Shown: positions 12,523 through 37,758 of the stretch, in pieces
How the letters are laid out: the number at the start of each line of letters is the position of its first letter
Numbering within the stretch: position 1 is the stretch's first letter
Source: Escherichia coli
GTDB lineage: Bacteria; Pseudomonadota; Gammaproteobacteria; Enterobacterales; Enterobacteriaceae
Strand: one strand, 5' to 3'
Length of the DNA: 64,000 nucleotides
NCBI RefSeq assembly: GCF_024502345.1
Contig: NZ_JALDNN010000001.1
Position numbers and translations under genes: made by a program
The notes under the pieces: generated by a model
What the model saw: the letters and a program-made list of their open reading frames with translations, nothing else
The model's database searches: none
Told to the model about the DNA's origin: nothing

Positions 12523-12779
12523 TCTAAAATCCTCGGAGATGTGATCTGCCCGGCATTAAACCGCACAGATATAAAAGTGAAAAAGGGGGCCATATGCAGG
12601 CCCCCTAACCAAACGTGTACTACCTGGTCTATAAGGGCTCTCCCCCTTCATATTTCGCGCCGCAGATGCGTTATCTTCGCTCGCTCATCCCGGTCACTTA
12701 CTGATGTAAGCTCCCGGGAATTCTCGAGCTTGCCGCCTTTCTGCAACTCGAACTATTTTGGGGGAGTTATCAAGCCTTA

Positions 12780-13727
<948 letters not shown>

Positions 13728-13872
13728 TCAGACGTTGAATTTTCTATTATAGAAAACGTTCAGTGGCACGTTTGGCGAAATTCAGAATGATTCTCAATTT
13801 GCCCGGGTGTGATACCATTGACGGCACTTACATATATATTGTCGGTATCACCGACGCTGATGGACAGAATTA

Positions 13873-14667
13873 ATGGCTATCTCAATCAAGACCCCAGAAG
13901 ATATCGAAAAAATGCGCGTCGCTGGCCGACTGGCTGCCGAAGTGCTGGAGATGATCGAACCGTATGTTAAACCGGGCGTCAGCACCGGCGAGCTGGATCG
14001 CATCTGTAATGATTACATTGTTAATGAACAACACGCGGTTTCTGCCTGCCTCGGCTATCACGGCTATCCGAAATCCGTTTGCATCTCTATTAATGAAGTG
14101 GTGTGCCACGGTATCCCGGACGATGCGAAGCTGCTGAAAGATGGCGATATCGTTAACATTGATGTCACCGTAATCAAAGATGGTTTCCACGGCGATACCT
14201 CGAAAATGTTTATCGTCGGTAAGCCGACCATCATGGGCGAACGTCTGTGCCGCATCACGCAAGAAAGCCTGTACCTGGCGCTGCGCATGGTCAAACCAGG
14301 CATTAATCTGCGCGAAATCGGTGCGGCGATTCAGAAATTTGTCGAAGCAGAAGGCTTCTCCGTCGTTCGTGAATATTGCGGACACGGTATTGGTCGCAGC
14401 TTCCATGAAGAACCGCAGGTGCTGCACTATGACTCCCGTGAAACCAACGTCGTACTGAAACCTGGGATGACGTTCACCATCGAGCCAATGGTCAACGCGG
14501 GTAAAAAAGAGATCCGCACCATGAAAGATGGCTGGACGGTAAAAACCAAAGATCGCAGCTTGTCTGCACAATATGAGCATACTATTGTGGTGACTGATAA
14601 CGGCTGCGAAATTCTGACGCTACGCAAGGATGACACCATCCCGGCGATAATCTCGCACGACGAATAA
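13873..14667 (+). CDS. map: methionine aminopeptidase
   Basis: 264-aa ORF starting MAISIKTPEDIEKMRVAGRLAAEVLE with the pita-bread fold metal-ligand pattern. Confidence 0.97.
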   Translation: MAISIKTPEDIEKMRVAGRLAAEVLEMIEPYVKPGVSTGELDRICNDYIVNEQHAVSACLGYHGYPKSVCISINEVVCHGIPDDAKLLKDGDIVNIDVTVIKDGFHGDTSKMFIVGKPTIMGERLCRITQESLYLALRMVKPGINLREIGAAIQKFVEAEGFSVVREYCGHGIGRSFHEEPQVLHYDSRETNVVLKPGMTFTIEPMVNAGKKEIRTMKDGWTVKTKDRSLSAQYEHTIVVTDNGCEILTLRKDDTIPAIISHDE

Positions 14668-20356: not shown

Positions 20357-21781
20357 TTACTGCATTAACAGGTAGATGGTGCTGTCGCCGCGCTGAATGT
20401 TCAGTGCCAGCACAGACGGTTTGCTGTCGAGAACTTTACGCAGTTCAGCGATGTTTTTCACTGCCTGCTGGTTCGCGCCAATAATCACATCACCTTTCTT
20501 CAGGCCGATCTGCGCAGCCGGAGTGCCCGTTTTCACGTTGTTCACTACCACGCCCTGATCTTTGCCTTTGTTGCTCATTTCAGCACCTTCAATGCCGTTG
20601 AAGATGGAGCTGGAATCAACCTGATTCTGGCTGCTCTGCTGCAGTTCCAGATTCACGTTGACCTGCTTACCGTCGCGCAGCAAGCCCAGGGTCAGTTTGC
20701 TGCCCACCGGCATAGTACCCACCTGAGCACGCAGTGCGGCAAAGCTGCTGATTGGCTTACCGTTCAGTGAGGTGATCACATCACCCGCTTTAATGCCCGC
20801 TTTTGCAGCGGAGGAATTAGGCAGAACCTGGCTTACGAAAGCACCGCGCTGGGTGTCAACTTTCATCGCTTTCGCCAGTTCGGAATTCAGCTCAGTCCCC
20901 ATAATACCCAGCTCACCGCGTTTCACCTGGCCGTATTCCACCATCTGCGAGGTCAGGTTTTTCACCATGTTGCTCGGGATAGCAAAACCGATACCGATGT
21001 TGCCGCCGTCCGGTGCGAGGATCGCGGTGTTGATACCGATCAGTTCGCCGTTCAGGTTAACCAGCGCACCACCGGAGTTACCACGGTTGATCGCTGCATC
21101 GGTCTGGATGAAGTTTTCGTAGTTTTCGGCATTCAGGCCGCTACGCCCCAGCGCAGAGACAATCCCGGAAGTTACCGTCTCTCCCAGGCCAAACGGGTTA
21201 CCAATCGCTACGGTGTAATCACCCACGCGCAGTGCATCAGAATCCGCCATCTTAATTGCGGTCAGGTTTTTCGGGTTCTGGATCTGAATCAGCGCGATAT
21301 CAGAGCGCGGATCTTTGCCAACCATCTTCGCGTCGAACTTACGACCATCGCTCAGCTGGACTTTAATCACCGTCGCGTTATCAACAACGTGGTTGTTGGT
21401 GACGACATAGCCTTTATCGGCATCAATGATGACGCCGGAACCCAGCGCCATGAATTTCTGTTGCTGGCCGCCGCCATTACCGCCCTGGCCCCCCTGGCAG
21501 AACGGAGAGCTCTGGAACGGTGAACCTTCCTGGCAGAACGGAGAATCATCACCGAAGAACTGCTGGAAATTACGCGGCATACGCGGCGTATTAACGGTTG
21601 TGCTACCTTCTACGTTAATGCTGACCACTGAAGGCATCACCTTTTCGAGCATCGGTGCAAGGCTTGGCATCTGCTGGGCTGTCGTTGCTGAAGAAGTCTC
21701 AGCCGCCGTTGCAGAGAGCGGAGATAACGCCAAACCTAAACTCAGAGCCAGTGCACTCAGTGCTAATGTGTTTTTTTTCAT
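20357..21781 (-). CDS. degP: periplasmic serine endoprotease/chaperone DegP (HtrA)
   Basis: 474-aa ORF with signal peptide, trypsin-like catalytic motif GNSGGAL and two PDZ regions. Confidence 0.97.
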   Translation of the reverse strand: MKKNTLALSALALSLGLALSPLSATAAETSSATTAQQMPSLAPMLEKVMPSVVSINVEGSTTVNTPRMPRNFQQFFGDDSPFCQEGSPFQSSPFCQGGQGGNGGGQQQKFMALGSGVIIDADKGYVVTNNHVVDNATVIKVQLSDGRKFDAKMVGKDPRSDIALIQIQNPKNLTAIKMADSDALRVGDYTVAIGNPFGLGETVTSGIVSALGRSGLNAENYENFIQTDAAINRGNSGGALVNLNGELIGINTAILAPDGGNIGIGFAIPSNMVKNLTSQMVEYGQVKRGELGIMGTELNSELAKAMKVDTQRGAFVSQVLPNSSAAKAGIKAGDVITSLNGKPISSFAALRAQVGTMPVGSKLTLGLLRDGKQVNVNLELQQSSQNQVDSSSIFNGIEGAEMSNKGKDQGVVVNNVKTGTPAAQIGLKKGDVIIGANQQAVKNIAELRKVLDSKPSVLALNIQRGDSTIYLLMQ

Positions 21782-21826
21782 GTATTTCAGTCTCGATTAA
21801 CAGATAACGCAAAATTGCTGTGTTCT

Positions 21827-27782: not shown

Positions 27783-29063
27783 ATGAGTAAGTCTGAAAAT
27801 CTTTACAGCGCAGCGCGCGAGCTGATCCCTGGCGGTGTGAACTCCCCTGTTCGCGCCTTTACTGGCGTGGGCGGCACTCCACTGTTTATCGAAAAAGCGG
27901 ACGGCGCTTATCTGTACGATGTTGATGGCAAAGCCTATATCGATTATGTCGGTTCCTGGGGGCCGATGGTGCTGGGCCATAACCATCCGGCAATCCGCAA
28001 TGCCGTGATTGAAGCCGCCGAGCGTGGTTTAAGCTTTGGTGCACCAACCGAAATGGAAGTGAAAATGGCGCAACTGGTGACCGAACTGGTCCCGACCATG
28101 GATATGGTGCGCATGGTGAACTCCGGCACCGAGGCGACGATGAGCGCCATCCGTCTGGCCCGTGGTTTTACCGGTCGCGACAAAATCATTAAATTTGAAG
28201 GGTGTTACCACGGTCACGCTGACTGCCTGCTGGTGAAAGCCGGTTCTGGCGCACTCACGTTAGGCCAGCCAAACTCGCCGGGCGTTCCGGCAGATTTCGC
28301 CAAACATACCTTAACCTGTACTTATAACGATCTGGCTTCTGTACGCGCCGCGTTTGAGCAATACCCGCAAGAGATTGCCTGTATTATCATCGAGCCGGTG
28401 GCAGGCAATATGAACTGTGTTCCACCGCTGCCAGACTTCCTGCCAGGTCTGCGTGCGCTGTGCGACGAATTTGGCGCATTGCTGATCATCGATGAAGTAA
28501 TGACCGGCTTCCGCGTGGCACTGGCTGGCGCACAGGATTATTACGGTGTGGAACCGGATCTCACCTGCCTGGGCAAAATCATCGGCGGTGGAATGCCGGT
28601 AGGCGCATTCGGTGGTCGTCGTGATGTAATGGATGCGCTGGCCCCGACGGGTCCGGTCTATCAGGCGGGTACGCTTTCCGGTAACCCAATTGCGATGGCA
28701 GCCGGTTTCGCCTGTCTGAATGAAGTCGCGCAACCGGGCGTTCACGAAACGTTGGATGAGCTGACAACACGTCTGGCAGAAGGTCTGCTGGAAGCGGCAG
28801 AAGAAGCCAGAATTCCGCTGGTCGTTAACCACGTTGGCGGCATGTTCGGTATTTTCTTTACCGACGCCGAGTCCGTGACGTGCTATCAGGATGTGATGGC
28901 CTGTGACGTGGAACGCTTTAAGCGTTTCTTCCATATGATGCTGGACGAAGGTGTTTACCTGGCACCGTCAGCGTTTGAAGCGGGCTTTATGTCCGTGGCG
29001 CACAGCATGGAAGATATCAATAACACCATCGATGCTGCACGTCGGGTGTTTGCGAAGTTGTGA
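27783..29063 (+). CDS. hemL: glutamate-1-semialdehyde 2,1-aminomutase HemL
   Basis: 426-aa ORF starting [26 protein letters not shown] (class III aminotransferase). Confidence 0.97.
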
Positions 29064-29070
29064 TGATTTT

Positions 29071-29091
29071 GCCTCGCCCACCGGGCGAGGC
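29071..29091 (+). terminator. hairpin terminator between convergent hemL and fhuB
   Basis: Perfect inverted repeat GCCTCGCCC-ACCG-GGCGAGGC followed by a T-rich run on the plus strand. Confidence 0.5.
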
Positions 29092-29097
29092 ATTCTA

Positions 29098-32814: not shown

Positions 32815-35004
32815 TTAGAAACGGAAGGTTGCGGTTGCAACGACCTGACGTTCTGCGCCCCAGAAGCAGCCATAAGTCTGGAAGCAACTGGCAACATACT
32901 CACGATCGAGCAAATTGTTGACGTTCACAGCAAGGCTGGATCCCGCCATACCAAAGCGTGCCAGATCATATTTTACAACAGCATCCATTACAGCTGCGCT
33001 ACCCACTTTAAAAGTGTTTGCCGGATCACCATAGCTGGAACCAATAAAACGACCACCTGTTCCCAATGTTAAACCAGAAAGCGGCCCTTCATTGAAGGTA
33101 TAATCCCCCCAGAGAGATGCCATATGCTCCGGTACTTGTTCTGGAGTTTTACCTTTGAGATTGGTGTCTTTGGTGTATTCCGCATCGGTGTAGGTATAAG
33201 AAGCCGTCAAGTTAATATTGGCATTTAACGCCGCTTTTGCTTCAAGTTCCACACCACGAGCGCGAATCTCACCTGCTGGGACTTGCGCTAATGGGTTTGT
33301 TGGGTCTGCTGTCAGGTTATTTGTTTTCGTCAATTGATAGACTGCGCCCGTAACAACGACCGGCATATCATTCGGAACATATTTTACGCCAGCTTCATAC
33401 TGTTCACCTTTCGATGGCTTATAGGAAATGCGCGGGTTGCTCCACAGATCGAAAGCACTCGGTTCAAAGGACTGGCTATAGCTAAAGTAAGGTGAAATAC
33501 CATTATCGAATAAGTAATTTACACCACCGCGCCAGGTGAACTGATGATCATTGCGCTCAATATAACCTTCAGTCGGCGTATAAGAGTTTTCACGAACAGT
33601 GGTCGCTTGCTTAGACCAATCGTAGCGTCCCCCCAGAGTGAATACCCATTTATTCCATTCCGCCTGATCCTGAACATAAATACCTGTTTGTTTGCTTTCA
33701 TTCATCTGGTATGGCTCTGCGCTACCAAATGCAAAGTATTCAGGGTGATATTTGTTATAAAGATCGATGGATGGTGCGGATCCAAAGCTGGCATTGATAT
33801 CATTACGCATCCGCATGAAGTCTACCCCTGTCAGCAAAGTATGCTCGACGTCACCTGTAGCAAACTTACTTTCAAGTTGGGTATCAACGCTAAAGTTTTG
33901 TAGACGCTCATTATCCACCACTGTCCCGCGGTTTAGGGTATGACCATCACCAGCAATCCCTGTGCCATAAACACTTTTCTGTGAGGTTTTCATTTCACTG
34001 AAACGCAGATTCTGACGCACGGTGAAGGTGTCATTAAAACCATGTTCAAAACTATATCCCACCATTTTCTGGTTACGGGAGTATGTATTATTCGATGCAC
34101 CTTCATTGAAGTCAGTCGGTAGACGCTTACCATTAGGCAATGGCTCAACGGTCCCCTCTTTCGGCAACCAACCGTAATAACCCGTTTCTGGTTCATTCTG
34201 GAAATAGGACAGGAAAGTAAAATTGGTTTTGTCGTCTGGACGCCATGAGAATGATGGAGCAATGGTATAACGCTGAGATTCAGAGTTTTTCTGCTGTTCG
34301 TTTGTTGAGCGAGCGAGGCCCGTCAAACGGTAAGAGAACTCACCGTTATCATCCAGTGCATCACTGAAATCGAATCCGGTCTGAAACAGATTATCCGTCC
34401 CCATTTTAAACTGAATTTCTTTCAGGGGTTCAGTGGTCGGACGTTTACTCACCATAGAAATAATCCCACCAGGATTACTTTTTCCATAGAGAACAGACGT
34501 CGGCCCACGCATCAGTTCAACCCTCTCGAGCATGTAAGGATCAATCACAGCATCGTTATAAAAGTTGCCCTGAAGTTTTAGTCCATCAAGGTAATTATTT
34601 TGATTCAGACCAACAGATGAGAAACCACGAATGATAACAAAATCATATGTATTAGAAGCACCACGACTGCTAACCGTAACGCCAGGTGTATAACCTAATG
34701 CTTCTTTTACAGACTGAAATTGATGCATCTGCATCTCTTCATTTGTCACAACCGAAATAGACTGCGGCGTTTTTTCAATTGGTGTATCCGTTTTAGTCGC
34801 AGTAGCAGAGTGCTTCGCCGCAATAGTTGCAGCAGGCCCCCATGCGCTTTCTTGCGGCGCAGGTGCAGCGGTAACGGTGATAGTGTCTTCTTTCGGTTCA
34901 ACCGCTGCCTGTGCATAAACAGACATGCCGCTAACCGCTGTGGCTACTACAACTGCGATTTTACGCAGTGAGTGTTTTGGCTGAGCAGTTTTGGAACGCG
35001 CCAT
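32815..35004 (-). CDS. fhuA: ferrichrome outer membrane transporter FhuA, divergent mosaic allele (729 aa)
   Basis: TonB-dependent receptor with signal peptide and C-terminal …VVATATFRF; the N-terminal ~60 and C-terminal ~30 residues match the K-12 protein as recalled, while the central plug/barrel/loop region is substituted throughout and shorter. Confidence 0.93.
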   Translation of the reverse strand: MARSKTAQPKHSLRKIAVVVATAVSGMSVYAQAAVEPKEDTITVTAAPAPQESAWGPAATIAAKHSATATKTDTPIEKTPQSISVVTNEEMQMHQFQSVKEALGYTPGVTVSSRGASNTYDFVIIRGFSSVGLNQNNYLDGLKLQGNFYNDAVIDPYMLERVELMRGPTSVLYGKSNPGGIISMVSKRPTTEPLKEIQFKMGTDNLFQTGFDFSDALDDNGEFSYRLTGLARSTNEQQKNSESQRYTIAPSFSWRPDDKTNFTFLSYFQNEPETGYYGWLPKEGTVEPLPNGKRLPTDFNEGASNNTYSRNQKMVGYSFEHGFNDTFTVRQNLRFSEMKTSQKSVYGTGIAGDGHTLNRGTVVDNERLQNFSVDTQLESKFATGDVEHTLLTGVDFMRMRNDINASFGSAPSIDLYNKYHPEYFAFGSAEPYQMNESKQTGIYVQDQAEWNKWVFTLGGRYDWSKQATTVRENSYTPTEGYIERNDHQFTWRGGVNYLFDNGISPYFSYSQSFEPSAFDLWSNPRISYKPSKGEQYEAGVKYVPNDMPVVVTGAVYQLTKTNNLTADPTNPLAQVPAGEIRARGVELEAKAALNANINLTASYTYTDAEYTKDTNLKGKTPEQVPEHMASLWGDYTFNEGPLSGLTLGTGGRFIGSSYGDPANTFKVGSAAVMDAVVKYDLARFGMAGSSLAVNVNNLLDREYVASCFQTYGCFWGAERQVVATATFRF

Positions 35005-35026
35005 TGGTATATCTCTGATGTAAAGT

Positions 35027-35077
35027 GAATGATAACGTAAACGAGAATGATTATTATAAAGATAAGATAATATTCGA
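35027..35077 (-). promoter_or_regulatory. Fur-box region in the fhuA promoter
   Basis: Overlapping GATAAT/ATTATC hexamers (gaatgattattataaagataagataatattc) 25-75 nt upstream of the fhuA ATG. Confidence 0.6.
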
Positions 35078-35223
35078 AACGCTGGCGGGTTCGCAAGCGG
35101 TACGCAATCTGAGCGTTCCTGAAGGGTTAATAAACAACCAGATGAAAAGAAAGGGTTAATATCTTAGATGGGATGTTATTTTACCGGATGGCAACTCGCC
35201 ATCCGGTATTTCACGCTTAGATG

Positions 35224-37758
35224 TTAATTACTACCAAACATATCCTTGATCCAACCGGCTACACCGTCTCTGTCTTTCTGCTCTTGCTGAGCAGGTTGCT
35301 GTTGCGGCTGTTGCTGCGGCTGAGAAGACTGATCAAACGGATTGCCTGACGGCTGCTGCTGCATCTCACTCTGCTGGCACAGCGATTGCGGATCGCTGGT
35401 CCAGACCGGCAAGACACGCATGCCACCGCTGCAAACAAAGTTGCCGTCGTAGTCCACGCCCATATCTGCAATATCTTCTGGCGGAACAAGATTCAGCGGC
35501 GTTGGCGTCTGGTTAGCCAGATAACGCTGATAAATCGACATTGCCCCGCTGGCTCCATACAGTTTGGTCGGCTGGTTGTTATCACGGCCTACCCAGGTGA
35601 TGGTCACCGTGCTGCCGTCAATGCCTGCAAACCAGGTATCTACGTTATTGTTGGTAGTCCCTGTTTTCCCTGCCAGATGCAGGTTCGGGTATTTCGCCCC
35701 AAGCTGACGACCCGTACCACGTTGTACCACCTGCTGCATGGTCCATAGTGTCAGATACGCCGCCTGCGCCGGAACAGCGCGTTCTGCCTGCGGGAAGCTC
35801 TGATACAGCACCTTGCCATCTTCCGCGATTACCGAACGCAGTGCAGAAAGCGGTGCACGGTTACCACCGCTGGCGATGGTCTGGAACGCCTGCGCCACTT
35901 CGATTGGCGTTAAGTTCAACGCCCCCAGCAGCATCGCCGGAACCGGATGCAGCTGATCTTTCGGTACGCCCAGTTTGATCCAGGTATCCGTAACTGCAGG
36001 CAGCCCCAGCGCCATCCCCAGATTTACCGTCGGCACGTTCATCGAACGGGTCAACGCATCCACCAGCATCACTCTGCCGCTTTCGCTATAACGACGGTCA
36101 TCGTTCTGCGGTGACCAGACCTGGCCATTCGGCTGACGCAGCGCGATTGGCGCATCGGCAATCCACGTGTTCAGGCGATAGATTTTCGGCTGGCTTAAAG
36201 CCGTCAGATAAGTCGCTGGTTTTGCAAGGGAACCAATCGAACGACGCGCCTGCATCGCACGGTTGTAGCCCGCAAACTGCGGCTCAGAACCTCCGACCAT
36301 CGCACGAACTTCACCACTAAAGCGGTCGACGACCACAATCGCAGTTTCAAGATCGCTCAACTTACGCTGTTTCTTCAGTGCCGGAATGCCTTCCACGGCG
36401 GCTTTTTCTGCCGCGTCCTGGGCCACCGAGTCAAAGGTAGTGAAGATCTTCACGCCGGAGAGATCTTTTACCTTATCGCCCAGTTTTGCCTGCAGCTCCT
36501 GACGCACCAGTTGCATAAAGGCTGGCTGAGGAGAGATCACCCCACCGCGCGGCTGAACCCCCAGCGGACGGGCACTCAACATGTCATAGAGTTCTTGATC
36601 AATAATCTGTTGCTGTTGCAGCAGACGCAGCACCAGATTACGTCGCTCCAGCGCCAGTTTTGGGTTACGCCACGGGTTGTAGATGGACGCCCCTTTCACC
36701 ATACCGACTAACAGCGCCTGCTGGTCGAGGCTTAGCTCTTCTACCGGGCGACCAAAGTAATACAAGCTTGCCAGCGGGAAGCCGCGGATTTCGTTGTCGC
36801 CGCTCTGACCGAGATACACCTCGTTCATATACAGCTCAAGAATACGGTCTTTGCTGTAACGCGCGTCCATGATCAGCGCCATGTAAGCTTCGTTCGCTTT
36901 ACGCCAGTAAGAACGCTCGCTGGAGAGGAACAGGTTTTTCACCAGCTGTTGCGTCAGCGTACTCGCACCCTGTACCGTGCGACCTGCGGTCAGGTTTGCC
37001 AGCACCGCACGTCCGATGGAGTAGAGGCTGATGCCGTCATGCTCGTAAAAATGACGGTCTTCTGTCGCCAGCAAAGTATCCACCAGCAAATCCGGGAAAC
37101 CACTGCGCGGCACAAACAGACGCTGCTCACCGTTTGGCGAAGAGATCATGGTGATCAGACGCGGATCAAGACGGAAAAAGCCGAACTGACGGTTGTTCTC
37201 CATATTGACGATCGTCGCCAGATGATCACCATCAAAGGTCAGACGCGCACGCACCTGCCCTTCTTTACTGTCCGGGAAATCAAACGGACGGCGGATCATC
37301 TCAATGCTGTTGGCCTGCACGGTAAATTCGCCAGGACGGGTCATTTTCGACACCTGGCGATACTGGGTCGCCTCCAGCAGCTTCACCATCTCGTTCTTGC
37401 TGATGGTCATGTCTGGCTCAAGGTTGACCATTCGGCCATAAACTGCCGCAGGCAGTTGCCAGACCTTGCCATCAATACGGCTACGAATTTTTTGATCGAG
37501 ATAAACGCCGTAAATGGCGATCAGCACGGCAAAAACGATAGCCAGTTTTAACAGCAGCCATAGCCAGCCGCGTTTGCCACGAGGCTTACGCCCTTTGCCT
37601 TTGCCCTTACCTTTGCGCGGCATCGGTTCTTCATCCTCATAGTCATCATAATCGTCGTAATCATCGTCATCTTCGTAACGACGACGGCTTACCTTTTGTT
37701 TGACCGGACGCGTCGGTTTCCCTTTGCGTCCAATTGGCTCGCGGTCATTCCCGGCCAT
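35224..37758 (-). CDS. mrcB: penicillin-binding protein 1B (bifunctional glycosyltransferase/transpeptidase)
   Basis: 844-aa product from the ATG at 37758..37756 ([15 protein letters not shown]…); acidic and lysine-rich cytoplasmic tail, transglycosylase then transpeptidase regions. Confidence 0.95.

Follow-up and report, generated by a model that had tools for sequence, protein, structure and literature searches.

The fhuA locus and its upstream interval

Is the cluster of GATAAT-like hexamers that lies directly upstream of a strongly divergent fhuA allele in Escherichia coli (contig NZ_JALDNN010000001.1) a genuine Fur operator, and is it the operator already known from K-12? We addressed this question in a 64,000-nt stretch of DNA, analyzed at its full length and referred to here as the window. 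A locus 99.9% identical to the fhuA gene of the window is annotated in RefSeq as encoding ferrichrome porin FhuA, and the gene order on the minus strand, with mrcB (ending at 35224) followed by fhuA and then by fhuC, fhuD, and fhuB, is the K-12 order, reversed. The interval under study, 35027 to 35077, is situated 23 to 73 bp 5' of the fhuA start codon, within the 219-bp spacer between mrcB and fhuA; the gene-strand sequence of the interval with its flanks (35096 to 35002) is TTGCGAACCCGCCAGCGTTTCGAATATTATCTTATCTTTATAATAATCATTCTCGTTTACGTTATCATTCACTTTACATCAGAGATATACCAATG. The gene and its translation start were delimited as follows.

32815 to 35004, minus strand: fhuA open reading frame (ORF), from the ATG at 35004 to the end of the stop codon at 32815, 729 amino acids
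35012 to 35017, minus strand: Shine-Dalgarno-like CAGAGA, 7 nt before the fhuA ATG, at least 90% conserved across genera

At the other end of the spacer, just past the mrcB stop codon, we observed a perfect 11-bp inverted repeat (TACCGGATGGC / GCCATCCGGTA, 35182 to 35208) with a 5-nt loop, which is found in Escherichia and is missing both from other genera and from the haplotypes with a fimbrial insertion discussed below. Its interpretation as the intrinsic terminator of mrcB was rejected, since there is no T-run on either strand and a terminator scan made no call.

A degenerate, phased array of Fur-like hexamers

Fur boxes are reportedly viewed by Escolar, de Lorenzo, and co-workers as contiguous arrays of GATAAT-like hexamers. 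The original prediction, made from the letters alone, was that multiple GATAAT/ATTATC hexamers lie upstream of fhuA, and this stands as the description of a degenerate cluster; taken literally, it does not, as a single exact hexamer is present in the interval. The elements concerned are the following.

35066 to 35071, plus strand (ATTATC on the gene strand): the sole exact GATAAT in the interval, overlapping the -10-like hexamer TATTAT
35025 to 35072, minus strand: eight Fur-like hexamers in a 6-bp register, with 35 of 48 positions matching GATAAT/ATTATC
35042 to 35056, minus strand: core Fur site TAATAATCATTCTCG, of the 7-1-7 type, matching at 11 of 14 positions and centered on 35049 (K-12 position 167439)

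When a single mismatch was allowed, seven hexamers were counted within 51 bp (GATAAC at 35031, GAGAAT at 35043, GATTAT at 35049, ATTATT at 35050, ATTATA at 35053, GATAAG at 35061, and GATAAT at 35066). This count is the maximum for the window, where the mean is 0.51 per 51 bp, and is reached at fhuA only; among Markov shuffles, 1 out of 50 attained seven near-exact hexamers in any 51 bp. Read on the gene strand from 35072 to 35025, the array consists of TATTAT, CTTATC, TTTATA, ATAATC, ATTCTC, GTTTAC, GTTATC, and ATTCAC. Its five-hexamer score (23/30) ranks first in the 64-kb window and was reached by none of 30 shuffles, and its seven-hexamer score (31/42) also ranks first in the window. A search with the strict 19-mer, GATAATGATAATCATTATC, returned no match with up to three mismatches anywhere in the 64 kb; the best 19-mer of the array, CTTTATAATAATCATTCTC (35061 to 35043), matches at 14 of 19 positions, tied for the best in the window. 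The core site, in turn, agrees with the motif TGAnAATnATTcTCA, given by Gao et al. (2023; PMC10164565) for Fur in vivo on the basis of ChIP-exo, at 11 of the 13 specified positions. The resemblance to the Fur consensus that an operator should display is therefore present as a 14/19 match, as an 11/14 match, and as eight phased hexamers. In summary, the hexamer cluster at 35027 to 35077 is real and non-random, and the Fur element of fhuA can be recognized only through its degenerate, phased hexamers.

Identity to the K-12 promoter and published Fur data

The promoter had further been predicted to be K-12-like, and alignment with MG1655 bore this out to the last base, without a single difference over 35268 to 34816.

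34816 to 35268, minus strand: 453-bp block fully identical to K-12 MG1655

This block comprises the end of mrcB, the entire spacer (219/219), and the first 189 nt of fhuA, that is, the 63 codons of the signal peptide and TonB-box region, and window coordinates are converted to those of MG1655 by K-12 = 167484 + (35004 - window). The sequence is by no means specific to these two strains: among 5421 complete E. coli genomes, 2312 matched a 241-bp query, consisting of the spacer and its edges, at 99% identity or more. Compared with the K-12 fhuA Fur cluster, the DNA, the distance of -45 from the ATG, and the neighbors (mrcB upstream and fhuCDB downstream) are all the same; the regulatory DNA shows no differences, and only the coding body after codon 63 differs.

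Given this identity, the regulatory data obtained with K-12 transfer directly to the strain studied here. Chen et al. (2007, NAR 35:6762; PMC2189734), who reported that Fur sites cluster in 6-bp steps, described a Fur cluster at fhuA with three sites over 31 bp, confirmed it by a gel shift with 150 nM Fur, and listed its strongest site (19.5 bits; their Table 4) at K-12 position 167439, at -45 from the ATG. That position corresponds to 35049 in the window, which is the C in the middle of the 7-1-7 site that we had located independently. In the supplement to Gao et al. (2023; PMC10164565), Fur ChIP-exo peaks are given at 167456 to 167466 for MG1655 and at 167456 to 167468 for W3110; on the window, the K-12 peak falls on 35032 to 35022, 10 to 25 bp downstream of the core Fur site. 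The same study found fhuA to be Fur regulated in 8 of 9 strains, with a log2 fold change upon deletion of fur that was modest in MG1655 (1.09) and amounted to 5.0 in W3110. Moreover, Fur represses a fhuA promoter-lacZ fusion (Beauchene et al. 2015; PMC4676285), and strong derepression of fhuA in a Δfur background has been reported on the basis of both RT-qPCR and a lacZ fusion (Gerken et al. 2020; PMC7315122). The literature examined contained no DNase footprint of Fur on the fhuA promoter.

The proposed Fur box is thus identical in sequence to a K-12 fhuA promoter with published evidence from gel shift, ChIP-exo, and derepression, and the one outcome that had been named as speaking against it, a lack of Fur-dependent regulation of this promoter, is contradicted by the published results for identical DNA. 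We put the probability that 35027 to 35077 serves the fhuACDB promoter as its Fur operator and matches the K-12 operator in every base at roughly 0.93; Fur binding and Fur-dependent expression in this strain would be as published for K-12, whose sequence is identical, and are carried over from there. The fhuA Fur operator is already known and, as such, real but ordinary. Like the fhuF, fepA-fes, and fepD-entS clusters (Chen et al. 2007; PMC2189734), it combines a strong site with weaker, overlapping ones at 6-bp steps, and like those extended operators, it overlaps sigma-70 promoter elements; the fhuA cluster is, however, a short one (31 bp and three sites in the scan by Chen et al.), and its match to the consensus is weaker than that of fhuF.

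The alignment with K-12 also revealed differences in length elsewhere in the region. The fhuB-hemL spacer (29009 to 29097 in the window) is approximately 110 bp shorter than in K-12, owing to an indel in the alignment, and the overall distance from fhuA to map is approximately 890 bp longer in K-12 than in the window.

Conservation of the promoter across Enterobacterales

A scan with the FhuA protein of the window, limited to one genome per species, yielded 80 loci; 75 distinct upstream sequences, representing the families Enterobacteriaceae, Erwiniaceae, Yersiniaceae, and Hafniaceae, were aligned. In this set of 75, column identity of at least 90% was observed for CTTGC, GTTTCG, TATTAT, ATAATAATnATTcTCGTTTACGTTATCATTCAC (35057 to 35025), and CAGAGA, and the Fur-like core is therefore conserved in orthologous promoters, at 90% or more over 35057 to 35025. 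The promoter core was conserved among the loci examined regardless of which of the three FhuA classes described below they encode.

While the fhuA promoters of other Enterobacterales, including the genera with an FhuA similar to that of the window, share this core, they differ in what separates it from TATTAT: a GC-rich GCTGCCGTC takes the place of the CTTATCTTT found in Escherichia at 35066 to 35058. The latter supplies an exact ATTATC and a CTTATC, i.e., two additional Fur-like hexamers, and the sole exact GATAAT (35066 to 35071) accordingly is part of an AT-rich stretch peculiar to Escherichia. In the alignment, 35077 to 35059 represents an Escherichia-specific extension, covering the -10-like TATTAT, and the two extra hexamers might tighten repression.

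An RNA-based explanation was considered for the most tightly conserved part of the core, CGTTTACGTTATCATTCAC, and was dropped because the fhuA 5' leader does not fold into a structure above shuffles (z = -0.12); an Rfam scan of the whole window gave no match at the fhuA leader.

In some E. coli strains, chaperone-usher fimbrial genes (encoding an usher and a fimbrial protein) are located directly upstream of fhuA, in the place that mrcB occupies here. Homology to the window resumes at approximately 35160 in one such strain, 4/0, and at approximately 35083 in another, WL297, while strain SCPM-O-B-8794 combines fimbrial genes upstream with the fhuA allele of the window. The fimbrial haplotypes keep the array and the -10 hexamer invariant but for two positions (35065 and 35064). 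For WL297, the start of the match at approximately 35083 could have reflected an insertion sequence between -35 and -10, an idea that was rejected: the upstream haplotype of this strain is divergent, carrying fimbrial genes and a -35 element of the CTTGCTAT type, as in other genera.

A predicted HypT operator overlapping the array

Fur is not the only regulator reported to bind the fhuA promoter. By DNase I footprinting, Jo et al. (2019, PNAS 116:3740; PMC6397515) localized HypT, a LysR-type hypochlorite sensor of Salmonella, on the fhuA promoter at two sites spaced 102 nt apart, TTACGTTATCATTCA (+7 to +21) and AACCCTTCCTTTTCA (-111 to -97), with the -35 and -10 elements, the transcription start, and the Fur box all located between the two. 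Deletion of hypT raised the levels of fhuA and fhuC mRNA approximately twofold under hypochlorite (HOCl) in Salmonella. Both sites have a counterpart in the window.

35026 to 35040, minus strand: proximal HypT site TTACGTTATCATTCA, an exact match to the Salmonella footprint and unique in the window
35143 to 35157, minus strand: distal HypT site AACCCTTTCTTTTCA, with one mismatch to the Salmonella footprint AACCCTTCCTTTTCA

Relative to the Salmonella Typhimurium fhuA promoter, then, the proximal site is identical, the distal site carries one mismatch, and the spacing of 102 nt is the published one, which together make up the sequence of a two-site operator, two pseudopalindromic 15-mers bracketing the promoter. 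The footprints are those of the Salmonella protein on Salmonella DNA, and their counterpart in the window is a candidate operator recognized by its sequence. On that footing, the downstream third of the interval, with hexamers GTTATC and ATTCAC, would also belong to the published HypT operator, and this strain probably regulates its variant receptor through that operator as K-12 does. The presence of a HypT site may account for the near-invariance of CGTTTACGTTATCATTCAC across genera.

The overlap has consequences for how far Fur itself extends, and a composite operator is the alternative that survives best. In this arrangement, Fur would occupy only about 35072 to 35042, and the segment 35040 to 35026 would be conserved as the proximal HypT site rather than for Fur. 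In addition to its exact 15-nt identity to the Salmonella footprint and the distal partner at 102 nt, the segment is weak as a Fur site (7 to 8 of 14 positions of the 7-1-7 consensus), and the near-absolute conservation of CGTTTACGTTATCATTCAC across genera is tighter than expected of degenerate Fur hexamers. On the other hand, the K-12 Fur ChIP-exo peak falls on this very segment (35032 to 35022), which moreover repeats the ATCATTCnC half-site of the Fur core at a distance of exactly 18 bp, i.e., three hexamers, and clustering in 6-bp steps is what Chen et al. (2007; PMC2189734) described for Fur sites. With the peak on it and the repeated half-site 18 bp away, 35040 to 35026 may well be used by Fur too. 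We consider an exclusive division of the interval between the two regulators quite possible, if somewhat short of an even chance; since the segment could be used by both Fur and HypT, a composite operator would in any case refine the reading of the interval as a Fur operator rather than compete with it.

Further upstream, the alignment revealed another conserved block (35120 to 35161; ATTAACCCTTTCTTTTCATCTGGTTGTTTATTAACCCTTCAGG on the gene strand), which is 70 to 90% conserved across genera and within which TATTAACCCTT (11 bp) is directly repeated without a mismatch, the copies being 29 bp apart (35161 to 35151 and 35132 to 35122). The distal HypT footprint explains only 35157 to 35143 of this block.

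Promoter elements and proposed repression

Two candidate promoters, both on the gene strand, overlap the array.

35067 to 35096, minus strand: predicted sigma-70-like promoter, with -35 TTGCGA (35096 to 35091), an 18-nt spacer, and -10 TATTAT (35072 to 35067)
35053 to 35058, minus strand: perfect -10 hexamer TATAAT, at -12 to -7 relative to a transcription start site (TSS) at 35046

The first of these, TTGCGA-18-TATTAT, scored 9/12 in a promoter scan and has a predicted start at approximately 35060. The second, TATAAT, is preceded by a weak -35 element, GTTTCG (35080 to 35075), with a 16-nt spacer, and its start at 35046 is implied by the positions of both published HypT sites in the numbering of Jo et al. 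In that paper (Jo et al. 2019; PMC6397515), the +1, -10, and -35 positions were taken from a computational study of E. coli promoters by Huerta and Collado-Vides (2003), and our literature searches did not find an experimentally mapped fhuA transcription start. CTTGC, GTTTCG, TATTAT, and ATAAT (the last at 90% or more) are all conserved across genera, as is the spacing between CTTGC and TATTAT. Both predicted -10 hexamers and both candidate starts lie inside the array, which is the sigma-70 overlap expected of a Fur operator. With either predicted promoter, the -10 element and the start are covered, and the proposed mechanism of repression would consequently be independent of the choice between them.

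On the basis of these elements, repression could proceed as follows. Under iron-sufficient conditions, Fe2+-Fur dimers would bind to the core site TAATAATCATTCTCG (35056 to 35042), from where binding would extend in 6-bp steps over the flanking degenerate hexamers, 35072 to 35025. Extended in this manner, Fur would cover TATTAT (35072 to 35067), TATAAT (35058 to 35053), and the starts at approximately 35060 and at 35046, such that RNA polymerase would be either kept off or prevented from opening the DNA. Upon iron limitation, Fur would leave, allowing transcription of the ferrichrome receptor gene and the transport operon. Within the array, 35040 to 35026 would double as the proximal half of the two-site HypT operator, with the distal half at 35157 to 35143. 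The spreading of Fur along the array, the use of one or the other promoter, and the action of HypT in E. coli are what we infer here.

A reading in which the hexamers are nothing more than an AT-rich -10/discriminator region or a nucleoid-protein site, with no specific Fur function in this strain, merits hardly any credence: the two -10-like hexamers in the array (TATTAT and TATAAT) do explain part of its AT-richness, and just one hexamer is exact, but the identical K-12 DNA binds Fur in vitro and in vivo and is derepressed without Fur, the 6-bp phasing and score of the array are unmatched elsewhere in the 64 kb, and the conserved core shares 11 of 13 positions with the motif bound by Fur in vivo.

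The divergent fhuA allele and its recombination junctions

The coding region had been described as mosaic, and the recombination tract had been suggested to be internal to the gene. Both statements proved accurate: core and flanks of the gene differ in their affinity, and differences from K-12 extend from 34815 (codon 64) to 32878, which places both junctions inside the ORF.

32878 to 34815, minus strand: divergent fhuA core, 67.5% nucleotide identity to K-12, with indels

This core specifies residues 64 to 708, which make up most of the plug and the barrel. At 34815, identity to K-12 drops from 100% to 59 to 77% within approximately 100 nt, and it returns just as abruptly at 32877, 63 nt before the end of the stop codon. 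The protein reflects this layout, with its first 63 and last 21 residues identical to K-12 FhuA and an overall identity of 74% (BLASTP; 729 versus 747 amino acids). FhuA is a phage and colicin receptor, and the protein of the window lacks 17 amino acids of K-12 loop L4, including both cysteines; without this stretch and its Cys pair, sensitivity to phages and colicins may differ. The closest relatives at the protein level were found in Citrobacter sp. (93%), Superficieibacter and Lelliottia (91 to 92%), and Kluyvera (89%), compared to only 75% for K-12 and E. whittamii. The genes on either side are ordinary variants of the E. coli genes, at 98.5% identity to K-12 for mrcB and 97.3% for fhuCDB.

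An import of the whole locus with its promoter from another genus, or fast divergence in place, would do without any intragenic junction, and the 89 to 93% protein identity of the receptor body to non-Escherichia genera, as well as the fast evolution that could generally be expected of a phage and colicin receptor, would fit such a history; it is nevertheless highly improbable, given that the sequence is 100% identical to K-12 in the promoter, the spacer, and the opening 189 nt of the gene and carries Escherichia-specific states there, where the look-alike genera differ at many positions, that identity changes abruptly at 34815 and 32877, and that the flanking mrcB and fhuCDB are so close to K-12 (98.5% and 97.3%).

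Recombination inside the ORF thus remains the preferred reading, which leaves the age of the core to be considered. At the nucleotide level, the core is approximately 80% identical to its counterparts in Citrobacter sp., Superficieibacter, Lelliottia, and Kluyvera, a value equal to that of the flanking fhuC, whereas the 5' end of the gene, the promoter, and fhuC are 97 to 100% identical to K-12 and approximately 80% identical to those look-alike genera. Within E. coli, the allele is carried, at 95% identity or more, by 562 of 5424 complete genomes (approximately 10%), most of the others matching at approximately 81%, and its copies differ from each other by approximately 1.5%. In four other E. 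coli strains with the allele, both ends are of the Escherichia type and the divergent tract does not extend any further. A recent import of the core from one of the sampled genera was rejected, with the best nucleotide identity at approximately 80%, as for fhuC, and with approximately 1.5% diversity within E. coli. Because of these two values and of the Escherichia-type ends, the comparison speaks in favor of an allele class that is old and against an import in recent times. While the regulatory block and codons 1 to 63 are of the Escherichia/K-12 type, the receptor body (34815 to 32878) would be an old alternative allele joined to them by intra-ORF recombination, and since that recombination would have taken place inside the ORF, regulation would be unchanged although the receptor surface differs.

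A second published K-12 Fur ChIP-exo peak, at 167641 to 167672 (34816 to 34847 in the window), lies inside the fhuA ORF, and its end falls exactly on the final base shared with K-12 ahead of the divergent tract, which starts at 34815. No Fur-like sequence is visible in 34816 to 34847, and the coincidence of the peak end with the tract start is probably just that.

FhuA classes across genera

Among the loci retrieved, at least three classes of FhuA cut across genera. Proteins of the type found in the window occur in Citrobacter sp., Superficieibacter, Lelliottia, Kluyvera, Trabulsiella, and Kosakonia oryzendophytica; the K-12 type occurs in E. whittamii, C. braakii, C. amalonaticus, C. freundii, and Kosakonia sacchari; and a third, Klebsiella/Enterobacter type occurs in K. 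oxytoca, E. hormaechei, and other strains of Lelliottia and Trabulsiella. Two classes each are therefore represented in Citrobacter and Kosakonia (window and K-12 type) and in Lelliottia and Trabulsiella (window and third type). A limited literature search on natural fhuA allele classes turned up nothing relevant.

We speculate, with considerable reserve, that fhuA might constitute a receptor cassette, in which at least three anciently diverged body classes are exchanged and maintained among genera of the Enterobacteriaceae between two homology arms. One arm would be formed by the deeply conserved Fur/HypT promoter together with the signal-peptide and TonB-box codons, and the other by the last 20 or so codons. 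If such a cassette existed, the identity of the phage and colicin receptor could change without iron or hypochlorite regulation being touched.

The allele is not intact in every strain: E. coli Br_112_kylling has a 673-bp deletion in a window-type fhuA (equivalent to 33186 to 33858 in the window), annotated as a frameshifted pseudogene, which is a natural loss of the receptor.

Beyond annotation, the finding that a variant receptor stands under the same Fur operator as in K-12 is of little importance. Its by-products are, first, a base-level map of the promoter, with the Fur core, the HypT sites, and two candidate promoters, and second, the juxtaposition of a regulatory block conserved over four Enterobacterales families with receptor classes that cross genera. 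The allele classes are relevant to genome-based prediction of sensitivity to phages T1, T5, and phi80, colicin M, and albomycin.

Other features of the window

A further Fur-like site, GAAATTCAGAATGATTCTCAATTTG (13777 to 13801), in which TCAGAATGATTCTCA matches the 7-1-7 consensus at 11 of 14 positions, is located in the spacer that separates the divergently oriented t44 RNA/rpsB leader (Rfam t44, 13533 to 13619, minus strand) and map (13873 to 14667, plus strand). This site corresponds to the ChIP-exo peak (189588 to 189600) that published Fur data for K-12 assign to map. Finally, Rfam matches above the gathering score were obtained for the CssrA small RNA (12585 to 12694, minus strand) and for the HtrA 5' untranslated region thermometer (21776 to 21821, minus strand).
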